DNA of 63,105 nt, the filler included, from Hausera hauseri (taxonomy: Eukaryota): NCBI GenBank assembly GCA_046269625.1. It is 10 parts of 10 records of this genome, joined end to end, with 100 filler letters (N's around TTAATTAATTAA, not from the genome) between each part and the next. Parts side by side here need not be neighbours in the genome. Positions count along the whole stretch, not along the records: positions 30,095 to 34,172 come from JBJURY010775758.1; positions 34,273 to 38,825 come from JBJURY010530676.1; 8 more parts are not named here. One strand, written 5' to 3'. Numbering within the stretch: position 1 is the stretch's first letter; each line of letters opens with the position of its first letter. Of this stretch, positions 5,629-41,900 are shown piece after piece. The position numbers and the translations under genes were made by a program. The notes beneath the pieces are model-generated. The model was not told where the DNA came from, did no database searches, and worked only from the letters and a program-made list of their open reading frames with translations.

Positions 5629-5999
5629 GGATGCAACTCATTTGTAATATAGTTCTTCTTTAGTGAGAATGATTTTGAACTTGTTAGCGGTTTTGTAGTA
5701 TTAGCAGTTCAATATTTTTAACACATTTTTTAAAATTGTTTTTGCAAAGTTAGGGTTAGACACCAAACCCCGACTTCGTCGTCACTCTGTACTACTAATC
5801 TACTACTACTACTATACTACTATCTATGAAACTGGGTAACAACTGACTGTAAGTACTGTGGTTTAGTTGTTTTCTGTGTCTTGAAATCCATTGCTGTGTA
5901 GTCATGACATACGATGTATTTGATGTCTTGAAATCACAGTGAACAATTTGCATTGACCTTCCTTTACCTAACTCTAAACTTCCACATGAATGTTATTAC

Positions 6000-6398
6000 C
6001 AGGGGTGGAAAGTAACTAGTTACATTTATTTGCATTACTGCAAATGGATACAATTTGTCTGTACTTGGTACCTTTTTTAGATTTGCAAAACCTGAAATTT
6101 CATTTGAATTTCTTTTGAGTAACTTATGTTACTCTGATACATTCAAAATCATAATTGAGTAAAAAATAGTGTATCTTTTTTTTTTGTAGAAAGTTGTTCC
6201 TTTTGAGACAAGTACGTTCTCATTTTCTTTATAGAATCCACGAATAGAAATTTATCCTGCTCATTTTCAAAAAAAACTTTTATTGAAATTAAAATAAAAT
6301 GTGTGGGACTTTCAGCTATTTACACTGTTAAACCATTTTGTGTTTAAGTGAAATTTCATCAACGTAATGTACATTTTTTTGTACTTTTTCCACCTCTG
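6000..6398. mobile_element. hAT-type non-autonomous element (MITE)
   Basis: Inverted termini CAGGGGTGGAAAGTA ... TACTTTTTCCACCTCTG; near-matching 8-bp flanks GTTATTAC/GTTATTTG. Confidence 0.7.
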
Positions 6399-6569
6399 GT
6401 TATTTGACATGTGGTGAAAAACTTTGGGAATGAACAAGTGTATTGGTTCTATGTACAGAGAAGTTAGTTATTACACGTTAGTCACATAAGACATTTGATT
6501 AATCACTTGTTTTGGGATGCTTCTGTGGAGAAAACTCCATAACTTATTCTTTGTTTCTTATCCTCTTAG

Positions 6570-10920: not shown

Positions 10921-10942
10921 CGTCACATGTTCCAGTTCTATG

Positions 10943-11110
10943 TTGTTGATTTCCACAGTGTTATTATTTTGTTGATTTCCACAGTGTTATTATTTTGTTG
11001 ATTTCCACAGTGTTGTTATTTTGTTGATTTCCACAGTGTTATTATTTTGTTGATTCCCACAGTGTTATTATTGTTTTGATTTCCACAGTGTTAGTATTTT
11101 GTTGATTTCC
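10943..11110. repeat. 27-bp tandem repeat, about 6 copies, in the 3' UTR
   Basis: Unit TTGTTGATTTCCACAGTGTTATTATTT repeated head to tail. Confidence 0.9.
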
Positions 11111-11379
11111 TTTAAATTTTGTTTTTCATTTGTACTTTGTACTGTACACTAAATACATTTATGAATTTTCATGCTCATGGTTTGTTTTTTGTCTATTTTG
11201 TTATAGCCTCTTTTAGTGATGCGTTGGTCAATCTGGTGTTTGTGCCAGTTCTTTTAAGTGAACTTAATTCCATTTAATTGGTTGAACACTGTATACAACC
11301 AATCATATGGGAGACTGGTGGAGGTAACTGTCCTGGTATAGAGTAGGGAGAACAGTACAGCATGGTTTGTGGATAACAG

Positions 11380-13199: not shown

Positions 13200-16100
13200 G
13201 TCAGATTTTGTTGTGAGTAGTGTCGTGCAAAGACGAATCAGAAGGAAGAGAAGAAGAAGATGAAGCGGGAGAGAGATTGTTGGAGACGGGTGGTTAAAGG
13301 TATTCAAGAGAGTGTTAGAAGGCGAAGGAGTGACAAAAGGTGAAGTGGTGGATGAAGGAGGAGATGAAAATTGAAGTAGAAGTTGGAATTGTATTAGGCG
13401 AAAGAGTAGAAGTAGAAAATGAGATACAGGGAGTGGTAGAGAAAGGAAGAGAGATAGGAATAGAAGTAGAAAGTGTGGAAAATGATAAAGCAGACCTAGA
13501 AGCAGAAGGAGGAGGTGAAACTGGTGTAGCAACAGATAAAGGAACTGCAGGAAGTGTAAGAGTAAGTAAAGAAGTTGACGTGTCGATTGGTGAAGTGTCG
13601 CAACAAAGATGGCGGGCTTTAAGTTGGTAATATGTGCTGTAAGTTCTTTGCCGTCTTTAGAGATAATACATTATGTGAATGCAGCTGTATCAGTTTATAT
13701 GGCCCCAGATACCGCGGTTGAAAACCGCACGGCGTCTGATTTTTTAGCCATACGAATTTTGCCGAATACAAGTCTTCGGGTAAATATATTTTTTCTTTTT
13801 GAAGTGTCCTGCTGACCGTAACAAAGTGATTTTGCACCGCCCATATCGTTTCATCTGTAGGAGTGTCGTCTAAGGCAGTTAGTTTAAACAATGATTGTAC
13901 AGGAGCTCCGAATAAGGCTGCAGTAGGTGAACATCCTGTAAAAGTAGACGGAGTGTTCCGCCAGCCAAGCTGAATAAACGGCAGAAGATTCGTCCAACTA
14001 ATGTTGGACTCTGCAAGGATTCTTAGTGACGTTTTCAATGTTCGGTGGAAGCGTTCTAGGAGGCCATTTGATTGGGCATGACAAGGCGTAGTATGTATGT
14101 GATGGATCCCCAAGCGGTTAACAAGGGATTTGAACAGGTTGGATTCAAACTGTGGACCCTGGTCCGTGATGATGAAACGAGGTGATTTAAACCTGTTAAT
14201 CCATATACAAATGAAAACGTCAGCTATGGTAACGGTGTTTGTGCTCTGCTGAGAAATGGCTCCTGGCCATCGCGAGGAACGGTCCATCATGGTGAGAATG
14301 AATTGATGACCGTTATCTGGAGGAAGAGGGCCAACGATGTCTATATGCACGGACTCGAAACGCGATGTGCAGGAAAAGTGAAACAATGGTGGCTTTAAAT
14401 GCTTAGTTGTTTTGTATTTTTGGCAAGTCACACACTCCTTAACCCAAGTCTGCACATCAGAACGCGTTGACGGCCAAATTACTTGTCGATAGAGTAAACA
14501 AAAAGTAGCCTTAGCACCAGGGTTGTGTAACGAAGGTACGCTAATAAATGCTTGCCTTTGCAATGATGGTGTGAGGATTATTAAGGAATGACCTGGTTTG
14601 GAAGTGTCTAAAGCCACGCCGTCAACAATTGTGCAATACTTGAAAGAATTAAGCATGTTTTGAGGTGGCTGGTTCTGTTGAACTTGAGCTTGCGTAAAAT
14701 CGGTGAAAAATTAATCGAAATAACCGACCTGGATAAAAAATCGGCGACTAAATTATTAACCCCATTAATATGTTTTATGTCGAAGTTAAATGTCGATAAT
14801 TATGATATCTGTCGTTCTTTGCGTGTGGAAGGTTGTTTCATAGCCATGATGTTAAGTAAGGGTTTGTGATCGGTTCGTATAGTAAAATGGCAAGCGAAAA
14901 GTAGGTGGGAGAAATGCTTTAGAGCAAAGACGATGGAAAATAACTCTCGATCGAACGTTGAATATCTACTTTCAGGAGAAGTTAGCTTGCGAGAGAAAAA
15001 TTCTAGCGCTTGATTTTCTCCTTTGTGGATTTGGTGAAGTACAGCACCTACCGCAGTGGTTGAAGCGTCTGTGGTAAGGATGAGTTCCACATCAGGCATG
15101 GGGAAAGCGAGGATGTCGACGGTCTTAATTCCTTTGCGTAAATTATCAAACTTGTCTACCAACTCAGGTGTCCACTGAATTGGCTGATGTTTTTTGCCAC
15201 CGCTTAAGTGTGCAATTGGTGCTGTCAATTCAGAGCAATATGGTACATACTTATGTACAAAGTGTAGTGTACGAAGGAAGCTGTGCATTTTGGTGGTCGT
15301 ACGAGGTAACTGGATATTTTTAAGGGTTTCAACGCGGTCTGGTTGAGGAGAATGGTCGTCTGGTGAAATAACGTGGCCTAAAAAGTTGATGCGTTTTTTG
15401 AAGAAATAGCATTTGTCGAAATTGACTTGGAGATTATGGTGGTTAAGGCGTTGGAATATTGCGCGAAGGTGTTCGTCGTATTGTTTGGTCGAAGACGAAA
15501 CGATCACAATATCATCAATATAAGGGTGCGCAATCGGGAAATCTAAGAGAATCGAAAGGTCTGTGCAGCATTTCTCAAACCGAAAGGCATAAACAAGTAC
15601 TCGTAGAGGCCAAGAGGAGTAGTGGCAGCAGTTTTTTTATGTCTTCGGGTACCACCGGTATTTGGTGGTATGCTTTGGCCAAATCGATGGTCAAATAAAT
15701 GGTAGTTGAATTAAGGCGATGCAGGATGTCCTTGATGAGTGGCAAGGGGCACGCATCCATGATTGTCAACTTGTTCAACTGGCGGTAGTCATTGTATGGT
15801 CTAAAAGTACCATCCTTTTTTGTACGACATGTAAAGGTGACGACCAAGGACATTTGGAACGGCGTACAATTCCGGAGCGTTCTAGTTCAAGAAATTCGGC
15901 TGCTACGGCCTGTCTACGACAAGGTGACAGTGGTCGTACCTTTTGGCGTATTGGTCGTTGATGCTGTGTTATTATTTGATGTACAGTGCTGTTTGTAGGG
16001 GTAAACAAACGATCTTTTTTAAGTACCCGTGAACATGTTGTGGTAACGAATTGCTGTAAAGTTGTAGGCAACTATGATAGATTCGGTGATGATCGTGAAA

Positions 16101-16821
16101 CAGCTTGAGTAGTAGCGGATGCGATTTGTGAATTGTTTTGTGATGTGCAGTCAAGTTTTATTTGATGTAAGATGGTCCAATAGAAAATGGTGTTAGATGA
16201 AATGATTTCGTCAAGTGAATGAACATTGGTGACAATACCACAGTTATCGACGTCGAACCTCGATCGATTATCAATATTATTATTTAAAAATTTACGAATT
16301 GAATTATTTTTATGGAAATTCGAATTATTTATTGATTTTCACCAAATTGACCGTGTCTCGATCGACTGCACAGTAGTCAAAATGCTATTGACATGCTCAG
16401 CAATGCTGCCAGTAATTCCGCTCCTCAGACATCGTTGACTGCAGCCAATCAATAAATTATAATGTGATAGAAAATCGGACCCTAGAATTGCCGTCTGGAC
16501 GTTAGCAACTGTGAACGTCCAGTGGAAAGGTAAAGAAAATTTTGGTAAAATAAAAGATAGTTTAGCCATGCCAGAAATGTGCAGCGCTTGACCTGAAGCG
16601 GTGTATAACGGCTTAATTTTGAATGGTAAATTCTGAACAGGAAAGATTTGTGGTAATAAAGAAATCGCTGCACCTGTATCAATGAGAACATCAATGGATT
16701 GCGTTGTAGGAACGGTGATTACAGCCTTTAGAGTAAAAACAGCAAAACAGGCGTGTCGGCATGCAGAAAGTGAAGTAGTGACTTTGCCAGAGTTTGCCGT
16801 GACTTTTGGTGGCAAATTTAG
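13200..16821 (-). pseudogene. pol: Gypsy pol (protease, RT, RNase H, integrase, S/T/P-rich tail), frameshifted
   Basis: LIDTGAAISLLP and ILGSDFL (PR); DYRQLN, DLAKAYHQIP and YIDDI (RT); TDASTTAVGAVL, YSTFDREL and TDHKPL (RH); HNPG..C..C, HIDIVGPLP, TDQGPQFES, ERFHRTLK and YLGPY (INT). Confidence 0.92.
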
Positions 16822-17902
16822 TTTTTTTGAAGAGGTGAACTAGAACGACTATTAGAAGAAAAGGTAGTGCGTCCGTCGTTCGTATCTGGTTTGAAAGTAC
16901 AGCTTGGAATGCATTTACGAGCTTGATTTTTAAACTTTGCGTGGTAAATGCAAACAACGGTGTCTGAAGAAAACTTTTATTATAAAATTTGCACCCTAGG
17001 CAGCATTTCTTGGCATTCTTATTGAATCTGCTGTAATAATAGCAGATAAACGATTGCGCAGGTGATGGTGACCGGTTTCTAGATGCGGAATGGGCGCGGT
17101 CAGCAACACAATCCCTTCGTCGGGACAGGGAAATTTAATTTAATTTGTTGTTTATATTGTTGACTGTTGCTTGTCATGCTGCATTTTCGGCACGTAACTG
17201 ATTTAGTTGTTGTTCTATTGATGTGTTATTGTTTTGGATACCGGTAGTGGCAACTGCCACCAAAACGACTGGTAGGGAATTTAAGTGTAGAACGTCGCGT
17301 GTCTTATCGGCTTATTTGGCCAATTTTTCAAGAGACGTGGAGTCCACCACTACGGTAAGTAGAGCCCGAATTTGAATGGGTAATACGTTAAGGAAGTAGT
17401 GACGCAGTAGTTCGGGGTTGTGTTCTTTAGTGACGCCGAGAGTGTGCAGATGTGCCAAAGACATGCGTAAAAATTCAGATTGTCGTTGTGTGCCTATAGC
17501 ATTGTCATGGAAGAAGCGTTGTATGATCGTGTCCATTGAGGGTTCTGTGATCTTAAGAACGGCGTTTGAAAGTTGTGAATATGGATCAGGAAGTTCAAAT
17601 ATTTCAATGATGTTGTGAATTCGTGTTTTAATATTGTTAGGGAGTAAGAAGAGGAGATTGTGTGCCTTAGTTAAGGAATCGATGACGTTATTGGCTTGTA
17701 GCTACAGTTGGTGGAATTGCAACCAAGTTTTGCTAAAGCCTTGGTTGTCAATGAAAAATTCAGTGCAGTGAGGGAAATGAGCGGAAGAGGTAGTAGGTGA
17801 AGTGTTATTGGTGGAAGCAAAAGTGGGTTTTTGAAGCAGTATGACAGATTTTGGTTTCGTGCTAATTTTATCCGTGGTGTCTATGATAGGCAATGAATTC
17901 AT
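16818..17902 (-). pseudogene. gag: Gypsy gag with two C-terminal Cys/His knuckles
   Basis: CYYYSRFNKNAKKCCLGCKF and CIYHAKFKNQARKCIPSCTF; helical capsid-like region (LLPNNI..PDPYSQL..SEFLR); ends at slippery AAAAAAC then TAA. Confidence 0.75.
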
Positions 17903-18216: not shown

Positions 18217-19257
18217 CTAGATCCCCGCATGCAGTTTTATAAAATACGACTGAGAATCGCCAACATCATCATGGTAGGTAATGTACCGCTGAGGCAAAAT
18301 GTTAAACTTATCTTTGAAACACTTAATTGCCGCAGAGAAATTTCTGTTCAACAAATCGTGATATTCACTTTTGCCCTTCGTCGAGTTAATAAGATTAATA
18401 TATTGAGTAAACTTTGCACTGATAGAAAACACTGAAGCTGAAACCGATCTCTTATCAGTCTTACTGTGGAATGTATCCAAGCCAACAACCATAGTCGGAA
18501 TAAATTTTAAATCAATGCCCCGCGGATCATAGCTAATTTTAGCAAACATTTGCATTATGGTTTTATCCTCAACAACCTTACGTCTTTGGTTATCACGATT
18601 AGTGCCATTTCTATGAGTGACGCACTGAGTCAACAAATCTGTGTTAATGGTAAAAGCTTTAACTCGACTGTAAGCTCCGTCATCATTAACAAATATCAAC
18701 GCAATACGAATTTTATTAACTTGGATTTGCTCGTTTAAAACGTCTTCAGTTTCGTGGCTTCGACAGGAAATAACTATGTCGACCGAAGAACTAACTCCAA
18801 ATTTTCTAATCTCTCTTTGAACATCTGCAATAAATTTTGTAAAATGGTTTGAAATTGTTTCAGTGACAATAACCCCAATTCTATGATTAGTACCTCTTGG
18901 AACATAGAATCCAACTTCGCGAAATTTTCGATAATCCTTCGCTTTCGTATTAATGACTCGTCCACCGGATGATACATTATACGGGTTTACCTCTATTCCA
19001 CTTAAAGTCAATGGATCTGCGTCAATTTTTAAATTCCACAACTCCATGTAGTCCTTTGACGTTATAAAATTAACGTGTTCTAGCGTGTTAAATAAAGCCA
19101 TGAAAGTGTTAACGCGGTCGTGTACAATATGGCACAAAAGAAAAATACGTGGATTATTAAATTCGAATTTAGAAGTATTGGAGGAATTTAGAGAAATCAA
19201 ACTGGACAAAAACACCAATATTACTTTGTCCAACACGCCAACGTCCGAGCAGTACAA
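18217..19257 (-). pseudogene. piwi: Piwi-subfamily Argonaute fragment (L2-MID-N-terminal PIWI), planarian SMEDWI-1/2-like, truncated by the gypsy element
   Basis: YSRVK..LLTQCV (MID pocket), QMFAKI, PTMVVGLDTFH (first catalytic Asp), SVFSISAKFTQY, LPQRYITYHDDVGDSQ (normally YRDGVGD); stops right after at the element junction; the first ~40 aa are not Piwi-like. Confidence 0.85.
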
Positions 19258-22200
19258 AATGTCGGAAAAAATTTTCTGACACTATTTATTTTACATCGTG
19301 TCTATTGTGCACGCTGATGAAGATCAACTAAGACTGCTTGAACTTTCCGCAAGTAGTGTTTTCTTTCTATTCTCCGTGCGAATTGAATTTAATCGACCCA
19401 GAGATTTCCCCAGTCGATCAACTTTGTTCAGTGCTTTTTGAACGGATATAATTAGATAATTGAATTCTTTTTTTTCAACGTCATTATAGCGCGAGTGGTA
19501 TTTTCGTGTTCTTTGCAANNNNNNNNNNNNNNNNNNNNNNNNNNNNNNNNNNNNNNNNNNNNTTAATTAATTAANNNNNNNNNNNNNNNNNNNNNNNNNN
19601 NNNNNNNNNNNNNNNNNNCTTTGTCTTTTGCGACACAGGAAATCCGACCGCACCACTGAACTCGCCGTTGTCGAATTAACCAATCAGCATGCGAGCCGCT
19701 TGTGATTGGTCAATTGGTGCGTGGGTGGACCCCCCGCCTTGGCCCAGAACCGGCTTTTTCTCCCTACTGATGTCAATTTAGCTATTTTTATCAATAAAAT
19801 TTAAAGTATTTTATGTATTTGGCTTTTTCATAAGTTTAAATACGAAATACAGTGTCCATTTTCAATTACATATCCTCGGATAGGTGTGCTGCTTAACTGT
19901 CATCAGTGGTCTATATTTAACATTTTATTAGTGGGTGAAAAAATTGAAAAAATAATCTTTTTGGGCGATAGCTCAAAAAGGTTGAGAAACAGTGCTCTAA
20001 ATTGTCATTTTGCAGTTAATTGCATTTATGTTAATTGTAATTAATTGTTTTTATTATTTCAAATATTTCAATTCAAAATGATATTTGGATGTTTGCCCCT
20101 AAAAATGTGACTTTGTTGCATTTTCTAATTTAATGTAAATTCGTAATATTGGTGGAGATTTATTCTGAGCAATTCGGAAGTTAATATTTCTAATGATCTG
20201 ATTAATATTCAGTGTCAATTGTTTTCATATTTTTCTGGTTCTATTGTTCAATTCTCACTAATTACGTTGGGAGAAACTTAAATTAATAATTAATTAATGG
20301 GGAGAACAAATTTGCGTATACCTTTACTCGAGCGCAGTGAATGGGTTTGCGGAGATAAAACGATTGAAACCTTACTTACTTATTAGTAGGTGATGTGTAT
20401 AGGGACAGTATCGTTAAGAAACAATTAATGATTACTGTTTATTCTCCTATATCTTTATTTAATATTACCTTGGCGGTCGTCAGGTAGGTTTGACCTGGTC
20501 GACCAAGAATACCGATTAATTATTACTTATTTAGGTTACTCAGTTACTTACTTCTTCAATAATAAATAACCGTTCGCAATAACAAATATAATTGATATCC
20601 AAATAAAATAACGACAAAAAGTGAAACTTCAAACAATGCACAAATACCTACATGAAGACATACAAGTACTCGAGAGCTTTAAAGTTACAATCAAAAGTGA
20701 CTTATCAAAAGTCGCTGTTACAAAATCTCACAAATCCGTATAATAATTACATGACACACGTAATAATGCGACTACATATAAGATAACGTATTAAAGATTA
20801 TGATCACTGTGATGATAACGTTACAATGTAATAACACAAATATAAAGTCCAATTGTATTCACATAATTTCGAATTTAAAGTATTTAAGATTTCACATTTA
20901 AAATGTCTAAGATTCACACTATCTCAAAATACAATTATGCGAATGTTGAAATATTCGGACATCATAATCCTGGATATTTTAAGGCAGAGAAGAAAATTTA
21001 ATAAAATTTCAAAATAAACATGAAAATTTAATTTGACTAACCTTTATCAATCCATTAAATTTTGTCTTCTCATGTATATCCTATTATTTTCTAGAAAATC
21101 GAACTTTTGTTTAACAAACTACCCAACATCTAATGTCGATGAAAATCATTACAATTTACAATTCAACTATCGTAGAAATGCGTGCAATGGTGTACATGCT
21201 CATTTCAGACACTGCGAATGACAAATGATTGAAAACTAATGGATTGATGAAATGTCACATTTATTTTTATCTAAAACTTCAAATTAAATTGTAGGACTAA
21301 TTAATGCAATACAGTGTGCCAGTCTTTACTCGTGATATTTCTATTTTAGCATGTTTAATATTTAACACATTAAAACCAATATAGTACAAAAATTAATTTC
21401 AAATTTTACTTTTTTGATGGTCGTCATCATTTCATTTATGGATTCGTGTTTATTCATGAAATGATATCAACTATTGATAATTTTTTAATAGTCAGTATGT
21501 AAATGAGGCGCCATAAACATATTACACGAATCTGCATGTCTTTTTTTTAATTACCGATTGTTTCTCTTTGATGTTTACATTTTTAATATTAATAAAAAAC
21601 GATATTTTGAATGGACAAAGAATAGGAAAGTTGCAGAAATTTCATAATGAAATTCTCTAAAATATTACAGTTATTTTTAAATGTATTTGAATTATTGGAA
21701 CTGGTTTTTCAGTGAAACTTTTGTCAGTGTGCACTAACGCGAAGAAAGAAGTTCAAAATTCCTAAACGTCGCTACACGTATTTGAACAAGTACCAATTGC
21801 GTTATGTTGTTAGTAAAACGTTTTTTTTTTAAATTATTAATCAGCGTTATATTTTCTACATCTTTCTGGAAATTTGTTACAAAAATTCAAATTTGCAATT
21901 TGTAAGTGTCACATGTTAGAAAGAAGCAGTGAATTTATAAGGAGCGTATACATTTCCTTCGTTCATCCATCAAATATTAAAAAGCTACTGGATACTTTTA
22001 ATAGAAAATTTCGGAGGCCAATGAGATTTATTTGGGCATCATTGATTAATTTAATTGTGCAATATGTCATTTCTGATAACGCGTCAAGGATTATTCTCAA
22101 GCAATCCGTCATAGCAGCATTTTGAATCATTATTGTTCATGTCAAAAGCGAACATTTATTGTAACAAAAATGTTATTTTAAATACTAAAACATACTTTGA

Positions 22201-23374: not shown

Positions 23375-24529
23375 TTATTCCCATAAATTCAAAATTACTT
23401 TCAAGAAGAATTTTTAATGTACATCTCCATTGGATTGAACAATTTGAGAAATAATTGAACCAATAAGATATCGACCAAATACAACAAAGATAAATTAGTA
23501 TGGAATCTATGACTTTATATCGTCTATCTACATAAGGTACGAAATGTTAATGTATATTAAACGTATTAGATTTCAATATTCATGTATATACGTATGTTAT
23601 ATATTGGGGTAGCCCTAATTCAACTCCCACTATATAACAATAGCTACAGTTGAAATTTGAGTACCTTAATACAGGTAAGGTCTATCGTTATCGAATAGAC
23701 AGAATGTACCTTATTTCAATAAGTTTAGTTCAGTAATGCTGGTACTCGCTTGCAGTCGTGTGCAAAACGTTTATCAATATTCTTGTCTTAACTATGTGAC
23801 TTTACAGTAAAATTTTAGACCTTAGTGTAGTCGAATCACCCTTATGGGGCAATGAAAAACCATATAAGAATGTTAAATAACAAATATATTTTACAACAAA
23901 CAATTACTGGATACACCTCTGTATCAAAATTGAAAATCAGAATCAACTGGCTCAGGAATAATTCTCAACGCTTTTCAAAATCTTCTGAGAATGCTTCTCC
24001 AATTGTTTCCTCAATTTAACTTCTCAAAATTCCTAATTATCTTCGCTAAGGAAGCTTCTGAAAACGACTTCAAAATATCTTCAAAATGTCTCTCAACAAC
24101 TTTCCACTACTCTCAAATAACTCAACTCTTTCATATCTGCTACACGTTTATATACCAATGCGACTGCGTACGCGACTGATTTAATTTAATATTCTTGGAA
24201 TTATACATACTTTTCAACCAGTTGTTTTAGCACTGTCAGTTTTAAAAATTAATATAAATTCAATGCTTTCTCCAAAAATTCTAAAAATGTACCAAATTAT
24301 TACTAAATTCCTTCTTTATATTTGTACAAATTCCTAAGTTTGTANNNNNNNNNNNNNNNNNNNNNNNNNNNNNNNNNNNNNNNNNNNNTTAATTAATTAA
24401 NNNNNNNNNNNNNNNNNNNNNNNNNNNNNNNNNNNNNNNNNNNNACATAGCATACACATCGTTGGCTAAAATATTGTATCTCAAATTTGTTTCTTCCTTA
24501 ATACAGATTTCTTAACGTAACGCAAAAAC

Positions 24530-25030
24530 ATGCACGTTTCTTGCATAAAACAGACATTGATAATCATTTCTATATGCTCACTAATCGTGGCCGCAATTTT
24601 TTATGTGCTGATCTGGAGGTTTGATCTATCACACATCCCGAATGTCATCAGCAAATCAGTCGACAACTTCCAAGTAAACTACGTCACGTACAGTCAAACA
24701 GATATTTCGAAATCTTCCAGTTTCAAACTACAAAACCTTGGGAGTGACGTAACCGAGGACGCCGCATTCAATTCGCCTTACTTTATCATTCCAAAGACAT
24801 ATGCAAATAAATCAAGGGAAGTTCCAACAAACTTGTCCAGAAATCCCAAAGTCATTGGCTGTTATTATTGTCAACCATGGTTCTTTAAAGACAGCACATT
24901 TAAGTTCAACCGGGATTTTAAACTGTGTCCATACAGCGAATGCGTGTTCGATTCGAAAGCAAATTTATCTATTGTGGACGTTCTCATTGTCCATGTTGGA
25001 TCAGTTGGAGCGCTCCTCGAAGTGATTTGA
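24530..25030 (+). CDS. Alpha-1,3-fucosyltransferase-like (GT10) N-terminal fragment, truncated
   Basis: Type II membrane anchor, stem region, then CPYSECVF....DVLIVH, resembling the GT10 N-terminal C..C...DA.vFH motif; no catalytic domain before the next gene. Confidence 0.5.
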   Translation: MHVSCIKQTLIIISICSLIVAAIFYVLIWRFDLSHIPNVISKSVDNFQVNYVTYSQTDISKSSSFKLQNLGSDVTEDAAFNSPYFIIPKTYANKSREVPTNLSRNPKVIGCYYCQPWFFKDSTFKFNRDFKLCPYSECVFDSKANLSIVDVLIVHVGSVGALLEVI

Positions 25031-26428: not shown

Positions 26429-26711
26429 AATTGTTGTTGTCGTTCTACTTTTGATTACGATATTGCTTTTTTACTATCCTGTTCAATAATTTGTGAACTT
26501 ACGCTAAATAAATGTTAAATTTCTATGCGTATGTTCATGCTAGAGGTACCAGTGACGTGCAGAAAGGGAGTGTTTGGCGGCTTAAATTTCCAATTAGAAT
26601 TTGATTTCAAGATCTTTTTGTAAAAATTATTGTCAATTTTATTTTTGGTGATGTTTGTACTTTTGTAAACAATTAAAGTTCAATGAATTTGAAATCAGCA
26701 ATCATTTTGTA

Positions 26712-28947
26712 CAGTGGAATCCCGGTTTAACGAAAAACCCGGTGATTGAGGAAATATTCGTTAAAGCAGGGTAACGGCCGATCCATCTGCATCTAAAGAA
26801 TAAAAATCCATATACTTTATTGAAAAACATTTCGTTAATTAAGACACAAAAAACCATCCAGTGTGGCTTGACGTCGTCGACTTAAGGCCGATTTCGCCAA
26901 AATGGCCTCTAAATCTACGACAGAAATGTTTTCGGATATTCCGTGTTCATTGCAATACTGACGGATCACAGAGACACCAGCAATTGCTTCAGATAGTGAC
27001 ACTGCTTGTGGTTGGAGAGACTCATTTGTTGCCTCTTCTCCTTCGTCATTCTCACTTCGAGCTTGTTGAAGAATCTCTTCATCAGTAAGAATTCCTTCCG
27101 TCGCAATGTCTTCATCGATGTTAACAAATTCTTCCATAGATGACGGTAGACTGAACGTGGAACCAAAATCTTGCCTTAGAACTTCCCAGATGAGCTGCAT
27201 TTCAACCAGATTTTCTTGTGGTTCAGTAAATTCTGCAGGAACAGTGATTATTTCTTGTTGAAATCCGGCCTTTCGAAAACAATTGGCGACAGTGACTGAA
27301 CTGACGCTCTCCCATGCTTTTGCTGCGAAATTAATAGCATCCAAAATACTGACGCGGAATTCTGCCAATGATTTCTTCAACTCAATATGAAGAAGAAGAC
27401 GCTTCACCAGGGCGCTTCTATAGTGCATCTTAAAAGCTGCGATAATTCCTTGATCGCAGGGCTGAATACGTGACGTAGTATTAGGTGGAAGGAAAACTAA
27501 TTCAATAGATGAAAGCGGCGGTGCACAATGGCTTGAGACATTGTCGACAATTAGTAAAATCTTGCGATTATTTCGTGTCATTTGCTGATCGAATTTAGTG
27601 AGCCACTCGTTCCAAAGAGAGCGATTCATCCAAGCTTTGTTACTACTGGCATATTGTACTGGAAGTCTCGCTGCATCGATTCCCTTAAAGCATCGTGGTT
27701 TGGCATAATTGCCAATAAAAAGAAGTTGTCTTTTGTCGCTGCCATCCATGTTAGCACAAAACAACAAAGTCACGCGAACTTTACTTTTCTTACCACCTTC
27801 ACACTTGTCTCCTTGGAAAGCCATTGTCTTGTGTGGCATGCATTCGTAAAAAAGGGCCGATTCGTCAGCATTGTACACATCTGCAGCAGAATAGCGTTGA
27901 AGTAAAGAAGGAAGAATAATTGTTTTCCATCGATAAACCGCATCTTCATCGGCGGCGCCTGCTTCTCCTTGTACAGTTTTAAAAACTATGCAATGTCTCT
28001 TCTTAAAACGGTCGATGAAACCGTTACTGGCTTTAAAGCCTTCCATGCCAAGTTCCAGTGCAATTTGCCGTGCCTTCTCTGCCAATAAAGGTCCACTAAT
28101 TGGCACATTCAAGGTGCGCTGTTAAGTAAACCACATTGAGAGGGCTTTATCCAGAGATCCCATCGATGTTAGATGTTTTCTTGTTGAACCTGCTGCAGTG
28201 GCGTGCCAATCTTCTTTAATTTTATCTTTCATTTTCAAGATGGTAGCTACAGTGCTCGTGGAAAGACCATACTTCATAGCCAATTGACCGTTGCGCAAGT
28301 GATTATTTTCCGCATCATTAATCAAATCAATCTTCTTGTTAATGGAAACAGTAGAACGCTTTGATGACATTCTTGGAGCTTGCTAATAATGATGTCTTCT
28401 GTATTTATACTCACAATAATTATTCTATAATATTATTTTCAAAATAAATAAGCTCTTAAAAATAAATTACCTCGTCTAGGGTCCAGCCAGATAGATATAT
28501 AATAGATATAAATTTATGAGTCATTAAATAACTTTTAGAAGCTCAATGGATAGAATGTATTGATCTTATAAGAGTTTAAATTAAATAAAGGATGAATGAA
28601 GCACGTGTACAAAAATCAATGAGAACTGTTTTTATTCAAAGCAAATTATATTAATAAATAATAATAGAATGACTCTGCATGGAAGAATATCGAAGGCATT
28701 TTATTAATTTGCGTATAAAATAAAAAGAGAATGGGCGTATCATAGGTGAGTTTTCGTTAAGGCGGGGTTTTAATTTTGTAAAATGTGAAGGTAACGTTCG
28801 TTAAATCGAGGTTTTCGTTAAAATGGGGTTCGTTAAAGCGGGGGCTTATATACATATAATGTACGGGGTTTCGGCAGGGACTTCACTATTCTTTCGTTAA
28901 ATCAGGGTTTTCGTTAATACGGGGTTCGTTAAATCGGGGGTTGACTG
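26712..28947 (-). mobile_element. Tigger/pogo DNA transposon, full length
   Basis: Imperfect TIRs CAGTGGAATCCCGGTTTAACGAA and (reverse complement) CAGTCAACCCCCGATTTAACGAA; TA on the left flank; repeated TTCGTTAA....GGG subterminal motifs. Confidence 0.9.
26835..28370 (-). pseudogene. Tigger/pogo (CENP-B-like) transposase, 511 codons with one in-frame TAA at 28122-28124
   Basis: HTH regions, FKASNGFIDRFKKRH, and catalytic Asp motifs YNADES, IVDNVSSH and IQPCDQG; ORFs 28122-28370 and 26835-28112 are in the same frame. Confidence 0.92.
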
Positions 28948-28949
28948 CA

Positions 28950-29994
28950 GTACGGAAAAACCAAGAAGTCTTCATAGCTGACAAGTGGGATATAGGCTGT
29001 ACAACATTGATCAAGCATATAATAGACATAAAAGGCGCACCAATTAACATCAAACCGCATAGAAAACCGGTGAATCTAGAAATCAAAATAAATGAGACCA
29101 TTTAAAACCTATGGAAAAACAATATAATAAAGAAATGTAATTTACCTTGGAAAACTCTGATGATCTGCGTCTGGAAGAAAGAGAAAAACGATGTCAGAAT
29201 TTGTCTAGATTTTAGGCAGTTGAATCTCGTCACAGAAAGGCAAGCATACCCATGCCGAATGTGATGGAAATGATGGATAAACTATATGGAGCTGGATATT
29301 TCACGTAAATCGATATAGAAAACGCATACTACCAGGTCGAACTAGAGGAAGAATCCAAGTTGAAAACAGATTTTTCGACCAAACGCGGACAATTTTGTTT
29401 CAACAGAATGCCTTTTAGTATTACAGCAGCGCCGGGTACATTTCAATAACTGATGACCAAAGTACTGGGAGATATTGAACAAACTATAATATACCTGGAT
29501 GATAAATTGATCTTTTCGAAGTCATTAAAAAACATTACGTAATACTAGAGAAAGTACTAGGTCAAATCAAAAAGGCGGGACTAAGAATAAACCCAGAAAA
29601 ATGCCACATCTTAAAAAACAAGGTAAAATTCTTGGGACACATTGTGAATAACAAAAGCATACAAACGGATCCATCGAAGCTGGACGCCAACAAATTGTTC
29701 GAGAAACCAAAATGTGTAAAACATATGAGAAGCTTTTTAGAGATTTGCAATTTCATAGGAGATTTATTTAAGGGTATGCCACAAAAGCTAAGACATTAGA
29801 ACAGATGTCGGACTGAAAAACAAAAAACTGGTATGGACCGAGTTTTGCAACGAAGCATTTGAAGCAATAAAAATGGCTTTGGCGTCCCCATCAATGCGAG
29901 GGTTCTCAGACTTAAACAATGAATTTATTCTGGATACTGATGCTAGCTTCGATACGATTGGACTAGTATTATCACAGAAAGACAGCACCGGACA
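28950..29994 (+). pseudogene. pol: Ty3/gypsy RT and start of RNase H, degenerate
   Basis: CLDFRQLN, AYYQVEL, FNRMPF, IYLDD, VKFLGHIV and FILDTDAS, with stops and frameshifts. Confidence 0.9.
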
Positions 29995-30189: not shown

Positions 30190-30517
30190 CTTTAATGTTA
30201 ATTAATGTCTTCGTTGGTTTTCGCAGCTTCTTTATTAGTCTTTTGAGTAATTGACTATTTCCGATTTTTGTAGTTGTAGATCCCGTGTCTATCAACGCAG
30301 TTAATGGATATCCATTTACTTCAATATCTATTTCTGGTCTCATAACAAATTGGGGCCCATTCTTATCACTCGTTTTACATGTAGGTTCTCGGTTATATGG
30401 TGTAGAGTTTTCTTCATAGAATTGTTTTATTCGCAACACTTGGTATGTGGAGTACATTCCCCAATGCTTCACATACTGAGGGGCTGATGGATTTATTAAC
30501 GCTGGTTCATTATACAT
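30190..30517 (-). pseudogene. Retropepsin-like aspartic protease, N-terminal half
   Basis: RPEIDIEVNGYPLTALIDTGSTTT. Confidence 0.85.
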
Positions 30518-32486
30518 TTAACCATGGTATTCATCTGTAGGGTCCAATTGTGGTAAATCTGTCACTAGCTTTCGTTTATACTTTTGTCTGCGAGATTTTA
30601 ATGCAAATCGTTTAAGCTTTGTTATATATCTACCACTTTTAGACATAACATCGGGATCATCTTCATAATTATCATTTTTACCGTTCAAAGTACTGTACGA
30701 TGAATTCTTCTCAACGTCGTTGTTCTTTTCTTTAAGTATTTTTCTCTTCCATTTTGCATTGTGATTTGTTAGGAAACAACTAGCTACTGCCGGTATTACT
30801 GCTATGATAATTTGCCATGAACATTTGACTGCTGCATGAATTCCATAAACCTTACCCAAGGCCGTAAATATTGTGCGTAAGACACTGATAATAAAACATC
30901 GCTAGAAATCCTGATGCTGCTTGGCCAAAATAGAGGAATTTTCCTTACATCTTTTCCATAACACTTCTTGTCACTTTCTTTAAATAATTTCGTCCCATCA
31001 AATTTTCCCATTGTGGTGTCCCTTTTCCGTCCCACATTACTCTTCTCGTTAATTCTGTTATTACTCGTTGCCTCTGTTGAGGGAATAACAGCATTCGCCG
31101 ATAATCTTCTAAATTTTTTTGCGTATAAATCCCTCCTTGAGATATTCCCATAAGTGGTTCGAATCTCTGACTTCTTTGTAAATTTAGCAAACTTAACATT
31201 TCTGGTTTCGGTACTGTTTTTCTTTTTGGCATCCTGATCCACGTCTTATCGTCTAGTTTAAACATAGGTGACATGTTAAAGGTACAATTATCCAGTCGAA
31301 TTGGTTTTATTTTGACGTCGAGTAATATCCTAGTTACGGGCATAACATATCTGGGTTCTGTGTGATAAATCACGGGTAACTCCGAGGTACATTCATCCGT
31401 TGGTCTTATTCTAACTTCCACCTTTTTACATTCAACATTTATAAGTACTTCACCCATCACTCTTCTGATTACTCCATCGCCAAATGGCATTACTGGTGCT
31501 ACCATATCGGGGTTTGTTATTACTAAAGCCATTTTGTTCCGTATGATTTCATAATTTAATTTACATTCGTTCGTTATTATTTCTCTATAAACTTCTAATC
31601 TCTTTTCTAATATAATTGATTAAAAAATCAATCTTATTATCAAAATACTGCGTTAGCTTTATATCTTTTTTGTTTACCTTTGTCTTTGCTTGGGCTATCT
31701 CCTTAGATGAAAGGTAAATACATTTATAGTTAGTTTTGGATATTTCTTCATCGCATTTATTTATTGTTCCAGTAATTTTAAATCGCATCATCTCTTCGGA
31801 ATTTTTTGAGTATACTACCGTTGCGACTTCCTTCATTTTTACTTCTTTGATCCCTTCCTTATATGTTATTGTTTCCTTTTCGGCTGTTTTTCCGACTGTT
31901 TTATTAAATTTTCCTTCTTTTAGCAGTATCAAATGACATCTATTTGAAGTTACTTCCCAAGTCATTTTGGATTCGACCGTATCGCATTCGCCGCTTTCAT
32001 ATTCGCACTAGCTCATTGTCGTCATGAGTTTAGTTTGTGAGTCGAATAATCCTTCGTATTCCTTCAATTGAACTTGATAATCTACCCCTTTACAGGTGCC
32101 TTCTACCGTTTTATCTATTCTTCCAGCTCTAAAGATTCGAGTGTATTTTATCTTATTTCGTACTGCTGGTATCTGTGCATTTTGTATCGTTATCACTCCA
32201 ATTTTAAAGGCATCTTGACATTCGGCTCGCGATATTATTATTGGTTCGAAGGGTGTTGTTGGTTCAATTATTGCGAAATTCCCAGAATAGTACGCGCAGT
32301 TAAACAAGAAAAAAATATTTCTTTACATAACATTCCTTGATCTTGACTTTCATGAATTCAGATTCCTGGTAAATCCAATATGTGACCGTTAGTTGTCGTT
32401 AATTGTTTTGGGTTGGCTTCAGGACATTTTTCTAAATCAATTTAGGAGTACTTCTGTCCTTCCTTAGGTTTTGAACAATCGTACGC
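30518..32486 (-). pseudogene. env: Chuvirus-G/herpes gB-like (class III type) envelope glycoprotein, frameshifted
   Basis: AYDC start, CEYESGEC....TWE....C, NKIDF, GEVLINVECKKVEV....ECTSELPV......YVMPVTRIL, GIYT...L...R...LFP, and a C-terminal hydrophobic VYGIHAAV..SWQIIIAVIP; these match motifs of chuvirus-like glycoproteins captured by retroelements. Confidence 0.8.
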
Positions 32487-32544
32487 TACGGTTGATGTTT
32501 CTGTTGGTCCTCCATATCCCTCGGGTCTTCTTATGTTAGTCATT

Positions 32545-32925
32545 AAACTTGTTAACCATCCGCCTCTACATTGGACCCAATTTTCTAGTGTGTCCTTTAA
32601 AACCTTAACCACTACTTTAATGTTTCGCTCAATTTCTTCTAGGTTTTGGGTCTGGTAATTGATTACAATCACTTTATATAGTAGGTAGGCTATAGCTGTT
32701 TGTACTTTTTGCCGTGTAATTCCTGTCGCGAACATCTTTCCCAATATGTCTTGCTCATGTAATTCATTGATTCGTTCTTCGTTGATATTTTCGTAAAATT
32801 GCCTACTAATACTTAACATGTTGTTTTGTAAGGTTTGAAACAGTTCCTCAGGAATCGTAACCTGCATACCAAAGGATGCGATTGATGTGTGTAATTTTGC
32901 CAACAACGTTCTTAATAATGGATCT
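32545..32925 (-). pseudogene. Bcl-2-family-like domain within ORF 32442-33224
   Basis: BH2-like LKDTLENWVQCRGGW; BH1-like ILGKMFATGITRQKVQTAIAY; BH3-like LFQTLQNNMLSISRQF; spacing is compatible with the Bcl-2 helical bundle. Confidence 0.7.
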
Positions 32926-33651
32926 ATATCCACAGATTCCGGTGATGGGTCTGTTCCTGCCAGTAACAATCGCCGTACTATTTCTTCATTTCTATCACGT
33001 TTATTCAGAATGTCACTTATCTTTAATCCTTTGGGTCTGCCTTTTCTTCTAGCTTCCGTCTGTACTGTGACATCCTGAGTATCACCTATAGGATGCTCTT
33101 CTATTTCTTGGAGTTCCATATCCCTTCTTATATTTTCTATTGTTTCTTCAGCTCTTGCATCCGCATGTATTTCCTTTATCGTAATTGGGTTATACTTTTC
33201 ACTCCTACATCCTACTCTCAACAAATTGTCATAACTATATAGTGTTCTGCCGTAGAAACTTAATCCGTATGTTTTTCTTTATAGAAGGGCTCTAGCTTTC
33301 CTATCTTTTCTCGTAATGCTAATATATCATTTATTTCGTTCATTCTGATGACTCTCATATCTTGATTTCCTTCCATCAACGTTATCCTTACTGCCATATT
33401 TCTCTCTTTTTCATCTTCGACTGCTTTGGCTAGCACTGTGCATGCTATTTCTCTTACCGGACTCGTATCATGGGCAAGTAGTAACAGTAAAAACAAAATC
33501 TCATCTATTTTCTGTGTTGATATTTTGTTGTCAGTTAGCCTAAGTTTCGTAGTAGTTGTTCTGTCTACGTCAACTATGTTTTCAGGATCACTTATCATTA
33601 CTAACTGAATAATGTCGTCCTCCTCATCCAGATCTACATCCGAGCCTCGTA

Positions 33652-34170
33652 TCACTTGTTCAAAAATTGCTTCGTCAAATACCTTCGCAGGTTGGTTTCC
33701 TCTTTCTCTGGTGTGGGTGTACTAGAGCTACTCTTGGGTGTGCTGAGGTTACTTTTCTTTCGTCCTTTTTTCTTTCCTAGGTCACTACTTTCTACGGAGG
33801 TTTCTCTTGATCCGATATCATTAATTATTTTTTTCATTACTTTTCTTTCCTCCTTTTTGGGGTTTCTGCTTTTTGTTTTTTCTTCCGCTACGTAAATACT
33901 ATTTTCTTTTAATCTCTTCTGCTGGGTTTTATAATCTTTTAGCTTTATGTCTAGCTGAGTTCTCATACGTTGAGATAGTATATCATTAATATAATTTACA
34001 CTTTCCTTCTTGTTTTTCTTTTCATGTTCACTATTACTTTCTTCCGTTTCATACTGTTTATCGGATGACTCGTCCGACGTGGCTGAAGTATAGTCCTTTT
34101 TCTTTTGCTTATTATTATTATAAGGCTTTGAGGATTCTCTTTTACGAGATCCGCATGCTTTTGCTATATG
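33652..34170 (-). pseudogene. gag: Gag C-terminus: end of a CCHC zinc knuckle plus K/S/E-rich linker
   Basis: The frame is open from the contig edge: (G)HIAKACGSRKRESSKPY...ESVNYINDILSQRMRTQ. Confidence 0.65.
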
Positions 34171-35439
34171 ACNNNNNNNNNNNNNNNNNNNNNNNNNNNN
34201 NNNNNNNNNNNNNNNNTTAATTAATTAANNNNNNNNNNNNNNNNNNNNNNNNNNNNNNNNNNNNNNNNNNNNTTTGACAAGTGTATTGTCAACAAACTTC
34301 GTGTCCATTTTGTATAATATATTTCAAAAGCATGTTTTAAAAGAAACATTTGTGTTCACCTATTGACAGTGCAGAAAATTGTGGGATTCACGGCCGCGCT
34401 GTACGCAGTAGGCGACAATAAAGACAAGCAAATGATTGAAAGTCATGATTGACACTCAAACAAAAGAAAACAGTTTTATATTCCGCTATTAAAACCCGCC
34501 TACATAATAGCAAATATATGGAACGTTCATTTATATCAACAAAGAAAGCCATTGATTGTTTGAATGTTTAATTAAGTTATTAATTTTGTATTCAAGTTAG
34601 GAATTTATATTTCATTACATTCACAGACTGCTAACTATTGTTTACTGTAATTGAATAGGCACTCCCTCAAACCTCGCGCCGTCTGGGCTGGGGGAGGCAG
34701 TCAACACTAGGTGCGGTCTATAATTCCTGGTATGTTATTAAGTTTTCACTGCCTAATCGTGCTAAGGAGTTCATGCCCGATGATCAATATTTTTTTCACA
34801 ATCAATTAAATAATTATAGAAAAAGGCTCACACAAAAGTTGAAAAAAAAATATTTTTTTGTCTCTGTCTCTGTCGCTCTCTCTTTCGGTACTTTCAGTGC
34901 AAATGATATTTGGAGGCTGCTATTGATAAGAGACTGCCACAAATGTTGATCCTTTGCTTTTCTTCCAGCTGTGCCCCAAGCCAGACCCCTAGCTGACAGC
35001 ATTTTGACCTGTGCTCCTTAATGTCTCTTTATGTCGTCCTTGATCTCTTTTACTCTGTGGGGTCCATTGTAGTGCTATCGTTTATTGCTAGTCGTGTGTC
35101 TATTTCATTTCAAATCCCGTGTATGTATGCACTATCGTTTCATTAATTAACCGTGACAGAGGAAAGCAGATGACCTTGGAGGGAGCACGTGATAACGAAG
35201 CCACATAATTCGTTGCCATAAACAGAATTACAATGGACCTCTACAGGAAATGTTGCAACAAAAATGCCGTCGGCTGGATGCTTAACTGGGGACGGAGGTA
35301 CTGTATGGGCGGCGACCCATAGCTGAACCTGATACATAGTGCCAGGGCTGACGATTCAGTCAGCCAGAATTCTCTGCCCAGGTCTTACCCTTGTCGTCCC
35401 CAGGTCACGGTAGGGAAAGGTACCTTCCTCCATGGTCGT

Positions 35440-38925: not shown

Positions 38926-41900
38926 AGAGAAATATCCAAAGGGGCCGTTTTTGCGTTAAATGACTTATATAGAGAAATATCCAAAGGGGGCGTACTTGAC
39001 GCCTCCTGACGGGGTAAGGGGAGATAACTTTTTGGACAATTTTTAAGGGGAGATAAATATTTTCTGTTTTAATTAGGTATTTAATTAGCTAATTATGTTT
39101 TAATTAAATAATGTGTTTAATTTTATTTAAATAATAGTTTTGTATAATTATAGGTGTAATAGTTGATAAAGTTGTTTTTCGAGGGTGGTGGGGTCGGCCT
39201 TAGGTGCTGAGGTAGGCTGCTGCAAGGTCGCCGGATCGTCCGCGGGATCGCCGGTAATTAAGTAATTGTTTTAATTAGGTAATTATGGTATAATTATTGT
39301 ATAATTATGTTTGTAAGCCTTGATAAGAGCACGGCAGCCATCCTGTCAGGGTAAGGGTAGTGACTAAGTCCGACTCAGTGGATTTTAAATTTTTTTATCA
39401 TCATCATTCTTTTTGATGACGTAATTTATTTTTTTCTTTAGTTAGACTGAGATACGTTATGTGGAGTATGGGGCGATGAGGTAGTTGCGTGTTATGTCTT
39501 TGTAGTAGTAGAGGCTGTATATACCAATATTCTTTTGATGAAGTCAGCATCTTGATGTAATTTCTTTAGTTACATACAGTAAGGGGTGAAGGGATTGTGG
39601 TGGTACCATGTCTTTGTATCGGGATTGTAGTCTGTTAGGTATATGTATTGTCAGGCATCGTAGGTAGTGGGTCAAGGAAGGGTCATATTTTGCTGTTAAT
39701 GTCACGGTTCTCAAAGGGGTTGGTAGTGCTTTAGGTCATGTTCTTCATGTTTGGGGGTGATATTTGCTGTTAAGGTCGTGGTTCTCAAAGGGGTTGGGGA
39801 TGGTGTAGGTCGTCCTCTTTGTGCTTAAGGACATGAAAATGTGGGGTATTTTCCCGTTAAGGTCAGGGTGATGGTGGGGATTTAGGTCGTGTTTAGGGGC
39901 AAGGAACGGGAATATTTTACTGTTACAGTCGCATTTCTTAGACTGCTCGCAGTGGCTTAGGTCGTCTTCCTCGTGCTTGTGCATGTCTTTGCGAGCAAGT
40001 CGGGACACGGAAGCGGGAATATTTTTCTGCTAAAGTCGTGTTTCTTAGAGTGCTCGCAGTGGTTTAGCTCCGCTTCATCAGGCTTGGGTGTCTCATTGGG
40101 AGTGAGTCGGGATAAGGAAGGGGAATATTTTTCTGTTAAAGCCGCGTTTCTTAAGGGTACTGCCGATGCTTTAGGTCGACTTCCTCGCACTTGTGGATGC
40201 TTTTGGGAGCGGGTCGGGGCAAGGAACGGCGATATTTTCTGTTAGAGTCGCATTTCTCAAGCGTGCTTCCGCTTTTTTAGGTCGACTTCCTCGAACTTGT
40301 GGATGTTTTGGGGAGCAGGTCGGGGCAAGGAACGGCGATATTTTCTGTTACAGTCGCGTTTCTCAAGCGTGCTGCCGGTGGGTTAGCTCGATTTCCACGC
40401 ACCTGTGGGTGTTTTTGGAAGCGAGTCGTGATAAGGAACGGTGATATTTTCTGTTACAGTCGCGTTTCTCAAGCGTGCTGCCGGTGGTTTAGCTCGATTT
40501 CCTCGCACTTGTGGAGGTTTATGCGAGTGAATCGGGACACGGAAGCGGGATATTTTTTGCAAAGGTCGTGTTTCTTACGTCGGCGGGCGGTGGTTTAGGT
40601 CGTATTTAGGGCGATGTAAGTGGGGTATTTTCAGTTAAAGTCGCATTTCTTACGGTTGAGGGCGTGGTTTAGGGCAACTTTTGCATGTTTAGGGACACGT
40701 AAGGGGTGATATTTTCTGTTAAACTCGCGTGTTTTAGAGTGCTGTCGGGGGTTTAGGTCGACTTCATCGCGTTTGTGGGTGTTTTTGGGAGCGAGTCGAG
40801 GTAAGGAACGGCGATATTTTCTGTTAAAGTCGCGTTTCTTAGAGTGCCGCCAGTGGTTTTGGTCGGCTTCCTCGCACTTGTGCGTGTGTTTAGGGACATA
40901 GAAGGGGTGATATTTTCTGTTAAAGTCGCGATTCGTATGGTTGCGGGTGTGGTTTAGGGCAAGTTTTGCATGTTTAGGGACACATAAGGGGTGATATTTT
41001 TCTGTGACGGGCGTATTTCTTACGGATGCGGGGAGTGGTTTAGGACAGGTTCTTCGTGCTTAGGGGCATATTTTTTCTGTTAAGAGCATGTTTGTCAAGG
41101 ATGCGGACAGTGGTTTAGGGCAGTTTCTTCGTGTTTAGGGACAGGCCATATTTTTGTGACCAAAGTCAAGCGGTAAAGCGCGGAACGGGAGTCATGTGAC
41201 AGCAGAAGGTGAAGTCAAGATGGCGACTGAATGGTCCACATGGGCAAAGTCAAGAGGAAGAGGGCGGAACAGGAAAGGGGTCGTGTGACGTCAGAAGGCA
41301 GTAACATTCCGACAAACAAAACTACACTATACGACCAACCCGACCCTTAACAGTGGGTATTTATTAGAACAACGAAACGTATTTGTCCACTTACAAAGGC
41401 TTCCTTTGTCCAGCGAAGAGCAACACAGCTGACCACTCGAATAAATAAAGCCCATTCACCTGACCAACAGACCAGTGTTTACACATGCCTCGGATAATCC
41501 CAATAACATCTTGTTTGTTCGCTGTCCAGCGAAGCACAACACACCTGCCCGACCAACATTCCAGCGAAGCACTCAAGCGAAACATAACTGTAAGGCCGAG
41601 TGACCGTATCTGGCCAGAGGTTAAACGAAGTGGACAAAACCTTCCATTGTTCACTCAAATAAAACACGTCTTTTAACATTCATCTAACCGACCTTTTACA
41701 ACTATACATTCTTTTACAACACTAACTTTTACTAACATTGTTGAATAAAAACACTAAACATAAATCCTTCTTTATTAACAACACTTACTTTTTACTAAGC
41801 TTGTAACTTGTTTTGTAAGCAACAACATTTACAGACAAAGCCGAGTCAGACCTTTGACCTTGGTCAGTGACCCATATCAGCAATCACGAGGAAAAGCTTT

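Follow-up and report, generated by a model that had tools for sequence, protein, structure and literature searches.

Can an envelope glycoprotein (Env) lie between Gag and protease in a single retroelement polyprotein, and how would it then reach the endoplasmic reticulum (ER)? The question is raised by a minus-strand element in a 63,105-nucleotide stretch, hereafter the window, of the Hausera hauseri assembly GCA_046269625.1. The window consists of ten short contigs joined by nine 100-nt spacers (44 N, a 12-base linker and 44 N) between positions 11762 and 58679, and because the spacers join separate contigs, features on either side of one are unlinked. The element, of the type called Burro in planarians, fills only the contig at 30095-34172 (4,078 bp), so that its long terminal repeats (LTRs), capsid, reverse transcriptase (RT) and integrase are out of view. 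We conclude that it is very probably an internal piece, now decayed, of a Burro-type LTR retroelement that belongs to the Ty3/gypsy group and to the flatworm GAG-ENV-POL lineage, is present in high copy number and probably comes from a triclad.

Domain order and intact relatives

On the minus strand, the contig reads in order the tail of a zinc knuckle, a linker, a ubiquitin-like (Ubl) module, a Bcl-2-like domain, a chuvirus/gB-type glycoprotein, a membrane segment and a protease (Table 1). A first-pass annotation of the sequence had proposed this order with abutting parts, and the Pfam domains bear it out, as does a natural stop-free frame (32445-33278) within which the Bcl-2-like domain continues into the AYDC motif of the glycoprotein. 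The charged linker of that annotation is present, but a helical segment and the Ubl module within it had been overlooked. Of the CCHC knuckle it named, the H-x4-C tail is present but the full motif is out of view, since the contig starts inside it; because the first two cysteines lie beyond the contig edge, the knuckle is assigned by context. The knuckle tail lies 559 codons from YDC, compared with 240 to 866 in six relatives, and the membrane segment lies 213 codons from the DTG of the protease, compared with 130 to 463 in 15 relatives.

As a single gag-env-pro polyprotein, the form in which the first-pass annotation read it, this arrangement survives in relatives but not in the window copy, which has 4 in-frame stops in 1,311 domain-path codons plus 6 frame changes. 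We searched 1.84 billion representative proteins with a 224-aa Env piece, which gave 583 matches, of which 150 were listed. Among these listed matches, Env is followed by protease in the same open reading frame (ORF) in 9 of the 11 proteins longer than 1,200 aa, so the single-ORF expectation held when examined on natural relatives. Of the other two, one extends no further than the membrane segment, and P0138 follows the usual order, in which Env comes after integrase. Three cluster members (P0151, P0154 and P0161) each encode Env, protease, RT, RNase H and integrase in one ORF, and P0005 runs from Bcl-2 to protease within one frame. A metagenome scan contributed 4 loci out of 169 candidates. 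Among them, L002 has a 3,703-aa ORF with gag, two knuckles (the window contig has only a knuckle tail), two Ubl modules, Env, proteases, RT and RNase H, running past integrase, and L001 has a 3,426-aa open frame with a Ubl module, a Bcl-2-like domain, Env and pol, likewise running past integrase. By tblastn the window contig is colinear with intact relatives across Bcl-2, Env, anchor and protease (best E 2e-101, to a long polyprotein). The gypsy-type order protease-RT-RNase H-integrase is seen in relatives, and the window contig ends inside the protease. Judging from these sequences, intact members appear to encode one polyprotein comprising Gag, knuckles, Ubl, optional Bcl-2, Env, one or more proteases, RT, RNase H and integrase. 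No relative was found in a viral contig scan, a word-index search of longer proteins with the Env piece gave no match, an Atlas search gave no usable match, and no tRNA genes were found in L001 to L003.

Other copies of the element are abundant. In one public run, 9,356 contigs lie on the stretch, most of them 80-95% alike, and all 30 of 30 bins are covered. Depth here is a sum over the contigs of that run, which shows many copies and is not a copy number; because the run may be the window's own source, it is not independent support. For three of the 4 stops, 99% or more of the depth of other copies has a different reading, against an expectation of about 0.03 per codon; the 3 length differences listed all coincide with frame changes. 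The breaks are mostly private to the window copy. In the final ~130 nt of the contig the depth is far higher (94,000), and this end resembles another repeat.

The glycoprotein and its proposed membrane topology

The Pfam family PF24664 (Monjiviricetes_fusion) matches the window glycoprotein (E 1.4e-38 and 5e-4), starting at AYDC. The fold was modelled on a relative, P0002, which is 44% identical to the window over a 224-aa piece (87-sequence alignment, pLDDT 83, pTM 0.60). In Foldseek this model matched herpesvirus gB (E 2.7e-13, TM-score ~0.33-0.40) and chuvirus-type glycoproteins (E 1e-43), and in a search of PDB with the Env sequence profile, 33 of 33 matches were gB (best E 0.004). Because the modelled relative matches herpesvirus gB, the fusogen is assigned to class III; the chuvirus/gB-like fusogen that the first-pass annotation had suspected is thus found both in the family match and in the modelled fold. 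Among the matches listed, the named free-standing proteins that come closest are glycoproteins of fish chuviruses (Wenling fish chu-like virus and Hardyhead chuvirus). They share PF24664, the same 14 cysteines and a YDC start after a signal, and are 31% identical over the query, compared with 33-45% for the best of the long embedded relatives. The chuvirus proteins differ in that they stand alone as genes of negative-strand RNA viruses, have their signal at the N-terminus and fall outside the clade of the window.

That clade was defined in a midpoint-rooted FastTree of 145 Env pieces, 12 of 157 sequences having been left out as too short. The window shares a clade of 24 tips (support 0.97) with 16 Envs embedded in polyproteins and 7 fragments. 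No free-standing glycoprotein of full length belongs to this clade, and one embedded Env (P0084) is placed outside it. The window has both of two Env motifs that mark the clade, one carried by 13 and the other by 12 of 15 embedded relatives and neither by any of 58 free-standing proteins. By eye, both are also present in 6 of 6 Schmidtea mediterranea entries in the part of the PMC13524379 supplement available to us, although this test was not blind, since the patterns were written after the S. mediterranea rows had been seen. Free-standing proteins without a usable start or end were left out, namely 14 of 69 for the cysteine and signal counts and 11 of 69 for the motif counts.

The ectodomains carry exactly 14 cysteines in all 15 embedded relatives (13 aligned, plus L001 and L002). 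Among the 13 aligned sequences these cysteine columns do not vary, and in 55 free-standing glycoproteins they are 95-100% conserved; the window copy keeps 14 of 14. A hydrophobic segment lies within 35 residues before YDC in 13 of 13 embedded Envs, compared with 1 of 148 upstream control windows, and likewise in L001 and L002. Small residues come after this segment in all 13; small residues after a hydrophobic core are the pattern of a signal-peptidase site. The number of strong hydrophobic segments from the Env anchor to RT is even in 8 of 9 polyproteins, which would place protease and RT on the cytosolic side in those eight.

We consider it reasonably likely that intact members of this family follow a flavivirus-like processing route. 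Gag, Ubl and Bcl-2 would be synthesized in the cytosol, and the internal signal ahead of YDC would direct the ribosome to the ER, where the ~530-residue ectodomain would enter the lumen and form seven disulfides. The segment behind it would act as a stop-transfer, with protease and Pol emerging on the cytosolic side, tethered to the Env tail. Signal peptidase would cleave before YDC, the Gag-side product retaining a hydrophobic C-terminal anchor, and the element's own protease would release the Pol enzymes. Since a single polyprotein would be threaded, Gag, Env and Pol would be delivered 1:1:1 to one membrane, where particles, perhaps infectious, could bud. The products of flavivirus polyproteins are likewise delivered to one membrane. 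Structural polyproteins of flaviviruses and alphaviruses have a cytosolic capsid, an internal signal, a lumenal glycoprotein and a stop-transfer, followed in flaviviruses by cytosolic enzymes. The resemblance is one of analogy only, as these viruses are unrelated, have class II fusogens and do not reverse transcribe. Identity and route taken together are, in our judgement, probably the best explanation of the locus. The window copy itself is incapable of any step of the route.

Several findings weigh against this interpretation. The window copy has no signal segment in any of three frames; its best 11-residue hydropathy before YDC is 0.60, compared with 2.15-3.42 in 13 of 13 relatives, and 24 hydrophilic residues separate GGW from YDC, compared with 46-79 in six relatives. 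The ER threading envisaged in the first-pass annotation is thus supported by the sequences of the relatives, but not by the window copy. At this gap the depth of other copies drops to 69, from 4,000-10,000 on either side, which suggests that the signal was lost from the window copy alone, although similar dips in depth occur elsewhere. L003, which has the exact order of the window, carries one stop between Bcl-2 and the signal and Env. P0151 violates the even-number rule. Behind the anchor lies another hydrophobic stretch (1.5-2.1 in 13 of 14 relatives, 2.5 in the window), which would put the protease in the lumen if it spanned the membrane. N-glycosylation sequons were not enriched in the embedded ectodomains (2.1 seen, 3.2 expected). 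As for decay, the length differences at three frame changes are carried by just 15-50% of the depth, and the rows listed (40 of 899 substitutions) include none for one stop and three frame changes. The likeness to Burro is drawn from its published description, and the triclad host is deduced from a fragment on a different contig (see below).

A further objection is that a separate Env mRNA would preserve the cysteines and the signal equally well. In that case, functional Env would come from a spliced or internally started mRNA with an N-terminal signal, and the Env of the polyprotein would be a passenger cut out by the protease in the cytosol. No 1:1:1 stoichiometry would be needed, and the Env of errantiviruses is translated from a spliced mRNA. 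In 8 of 15 relatives the hydrophobic core is preceded by a methionine no more than 20 residues away, but the other 7 have none, and no conserved internal start codon was found. Internal signals are normally recognized wherever they emerge, and signal-anchor pairs also enclose other non-enzymatic modules, behind integrase in 6 of 8 polyproteins and in L001 between proteases, which fits repeated threading. We regard a separate mRNA as the source of functional Env as unlikely.

Two further explanations concern the integrity of the reading frame. Gag and the remainder could lie in two frames linked, as in most retroviruses, by a programmed -1 frameshift near 33700, the first break then being functional. 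The knuckle-linker frame and the next frame do overlap at 33721-33652 in a -1 relation, and the length difference there is found in just ~15% of a thin depth. However, no in-frame X XXY YYZ slippery site was seen by eye in the overlap, the knuckle runs unbroken into Ubl in L002, L003, P0003 and P0006, and the five other frame changes in the window copy are plainly decay, so that a programmed shift seems very unlikely. The order could also be an accident, either of nesting, a gypsy element of the ordinary kind having received a glycoprotein from an endogenous chuvirus and a Bcl-2 pseudogene from the host, or of chimeric assembly. In favour of this, the assembly is fragmented, the contig is short and degraded, and the Bcl-2 Pfam score is under the cut-off. 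Against an accident stand the colinearity with single natural ORFs across Bcl-2, Env, anchor and protease, the stop-free frame from Bcl-2 to Env in the window itself, the coverage of all 30 bins by many other copies, and the greater distance of the nearest named viral glycoproteins (31%) than of the embedded relatives (33-45%). This explanation is largely refuted already, and we give it hardly any credence.

Returning to the threaded polyprotein, paired strong hydrophobic segments are also observed after integrase in 6 of 8 polyproteins. Here a second hydrophobic segment is followed by a stretch of 250-400 residues that matches no Pfam family, and then by a further membrane segment (L001 ~9000-10282, L002 ~9900-11208, P0003, P0084, P0151 and P0154), and L001 has a similar signal-anchor module between two proteases. 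The post-integrase stretch is a candidate second lumenal module. A bolder version of the proposed route, which we put forward tentatively and hold to be somewhat doubtful, is that these elements are reverse-transcribing viruses whose flavivirus-like polyprotein would be woven through the ER repeatedly, with Env and the post-integrase module in the lumen and the Env signal, through cleavage by signal peptidase, becoming the tail anchor of Gag-Ubl-Bcl-2.

Cargo domains and neighbouring features

The Ubl module was detected with a profile of 7 natural modules from 6 relatives, built with the window left out. The window read-through, with X at the break, scored 22.2 bits (E 7e-6, 1,339 targets), a score reached by 0 of 977 scored shuffles, and the Ubl module of L003 matches Pfam ubiquitin (E 6e-5). 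Pairwise tests of the window module against relatives were not significant, and an initial profile, drawn from 3 relatives, gave a weak score of 8.5 bits for a region picked after the fact. A basic GRP[KR] motif found by motif scan, which we take to be AT-hook-like and whose role is putative, is present in the window, in 4 of 12 relatives and in L003, including relatives without Bcl-2.

The Bcl-2-like domain has a Pfam match below the curated cut-off (E 8e-5), and its top PDB sequence match is BOK (E 0.0076), with Bcl-xL also matched. In pairwise comparison the region reached z 10.9, 10.5 and 4.0 against 3 of 12 relatives. The BH2-like GGW is present and the BH1 region is divergent. A single-sequence model of this frame, at pLDDT 35, was unusable for fold, and a word-index protein search with it gave no match. 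The BH2-like motif is found in 5 of 15 relatives and in L003; across these sequences, Bcl-2 is an optional cargo of the clade.

Table 1. Parts of the Burro-type element on the contig at 30095-34172, with the breaks of the window copy
Feature	Position	Strand	Basis and remarks
CCHC zinc knuckle tail (H-x4-C)	34153..34170	-	Translation; cut by contig end
Charged, low-complexity linker	33540..34152	-	No Pfam family; frame change near 33695
Helical segment and ubiquitin-like domain	33170..33540	-	7-module profile; split by frame change near 33272
Basic GRP[KR] motif	33020..33075	-	Motif scan; between Ubl and Bcl-2
Bcl-2-like domain, ending in BH2-like W-x4-GGW	32555..32860	-	Pfam, pairwise and PDB sequence matches
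Short hydrophilic joint, in place of the relatives' hydrophobic signal segment	32499..32554	-	Hydropathy, spacing
Chuvirus/gB-type (class III) ectodomain, ~520 codons	30945..32498	-	PF24664, colinear tblastn, 14 cysteines; stops 32442-44, 32008-10 and 30945-47; frame changes near 32380, 32314 and 31600
Transmembrane segment, then weaker second hydrophobic stretch	30765..30944	-	Frame change near 30893
Basic cytosolic tail and spacer to protease	30350..30764	-	Stop at 30518-20
Retropepsin-type aspartyl protease (DTGS), N-terminal half, truncated	30200..30349	-	Pfam Asp_protease_2 E 1e-4, RVP E 2e-3

Among the relatives, tandem aspartyl-protease domains occur within one polyprotein in P0005, P0006, P0008, P0151, L001 and L002, with up to 6 Pfam stretches in P0151. 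An accessory ORF with an RNase T-family exonuclease domain lies downstream of the polyprotein in L001 (10617-12107, E 1e-5) and L002 (12085-13473, E 1e-3). P0003 (HBK71150.1), a full Env-Pol polyprotein, is deposited as a hypothetical protein of a Flavobacteriaceae metagenome-assembled genome and is probably a mis-binned animal contig.

The other contigs of the window carry unlinked features. An RT at 28950-29994 (plus strand) was considered as the pol of the element and rejected, because it lies on a separate contig and is only 37-44% identical to RT cores of the family, which are 53-95% alike among themselves. A PIWI fragment of 354 codons in one frame (18217-19281, minus strand) matched triclad PIWI-1 in 3 of 3 matches at 54-56%, and it is on this fragment that the host is judged to be probably a triclad. 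The first contig (1-11761) contains a 683-aa transposase-like ORF (3577-5628, weak DUF4218), and its repeats look teleost-like to us; for this reason the assembly may be mixed, which leaves the host uncertain. A Pogo/Tigger-type DNA transposon at ~26710-28950 (minus strand) has a 428-codon DDE_1 and HTH frame, terminal repeats seen by eye, and one in-frame stop between its N-terminal part and that frame. Another LTR element, also degraded, lies at 13619-17134 (minus strand) and has RT, RNase H and integrase. Fragments at 51431-52519 (minus strand) match protein-primed polymerase B (E 6e-5) and are presumably Polinton-like, and a tandem array with a period of ~106 nt occupies 39700-41100. A 169-codon frame with a signal anchor at 24521-25030 (plus strand) has no Pfam match and, as we read it, resembles the start of a fucosyltransferase.

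Comparison with known elements

Section 7 of PMC6431247 describes planarian Burro elements with Ubl, BCL2, env and protease in frame, and the first-pass annotation was right to point to Burro as the comparison. By that description, Burro and GYPSM1 have a knuckle, a Ubi2/SUMO-like module, a BCL2-like domain, a mononegavirus-like Env and a protease in the same order and in frame, at high copy number, as in the family of the window; decaying Burro-type fragments are described there in another planarian. An N-terminal Gag with two or three CCHC knuckles and a giant size (over 30 kb) with LTRs are also marks of Burro elements; of the window element, 4,078 bp is in view. No MATH, BIR or ankyrin domain is among the Pfam matches within these 4 kb; ORF1 of the D. 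tigrina element likewise lacks MATH, and ankyrin is present in the relative P0151. The Burro1 cargo with a demonstrated anti-apoptotic effect is a BIR/RING protein, not Bcl-2, and it protects stem cells (Lee et al. 2026, as cited in the part of PMC13465017 available). Burro1 expression is under PIWI control according to the accessible part of PMC8532177, and that of PMC11410931 adds nothing further on structure.

As far as its available text goes, PMC13524379 reports GAG-ENV-POL elements with a gB-type Env in Nematoda, Bryozoa and Platyhelminthes, which are not monophyletic, with ectodomains between "two transmembrane domains" in some. Six S. mediterranea elements among them (Smed_errantivirus_1-6, cysteine type C1a) resemble the window element in gene order, in a gB-like fold (by the model of its relative) and in the two Env motifs. 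Nematode elements of a non-canonical kind (Sacco et al. 2022, as cited there) are alike in being metaviruses with Env upstream of pol. The novelty implied in the first-pass annotation does not stand, since the BCL2-env-protease layout and GAG-ENV-POL elements with gB-type Env had appeared in the available parts of PMC6431247 and PMC13524379. The words "Bcl", "polyprotein" and "single ORF" are absent from the main text of PMC13524379, and we take cargo domains and processing to be untreated in it. We did not find the processing route described in the accessible literature; Grohme 2018, Sacco 2022 and Lee 2026, which lay outside it as did most subscription journals, may already describe the internal signal.

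The window element is a dead copy of a kind of element that had been described before; it works like Burro, and its membership is likely. Because the unusual architecture was known and the copy is dead, the locus itself adds little; what the comparison adds is the evidence on topology from its relatives. That topology sharpens the question of how an Env in the middle of Gag-Pol reaches the ER, and the invariant cysteines, internal signal and paired hydrophobic segments point to a specific route with a predicted cleavage site. If the repeated-threading version were true, capsid assembly and the Bcl-2 domain would be placed at the ER in one step, and the captured Bcl-2 would regain the membrane anchor that cellular Bcl-2 proteins have after BH2. 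That Bcl-2 is an optional cargo bears on how these elements interfere with host apoptosis.

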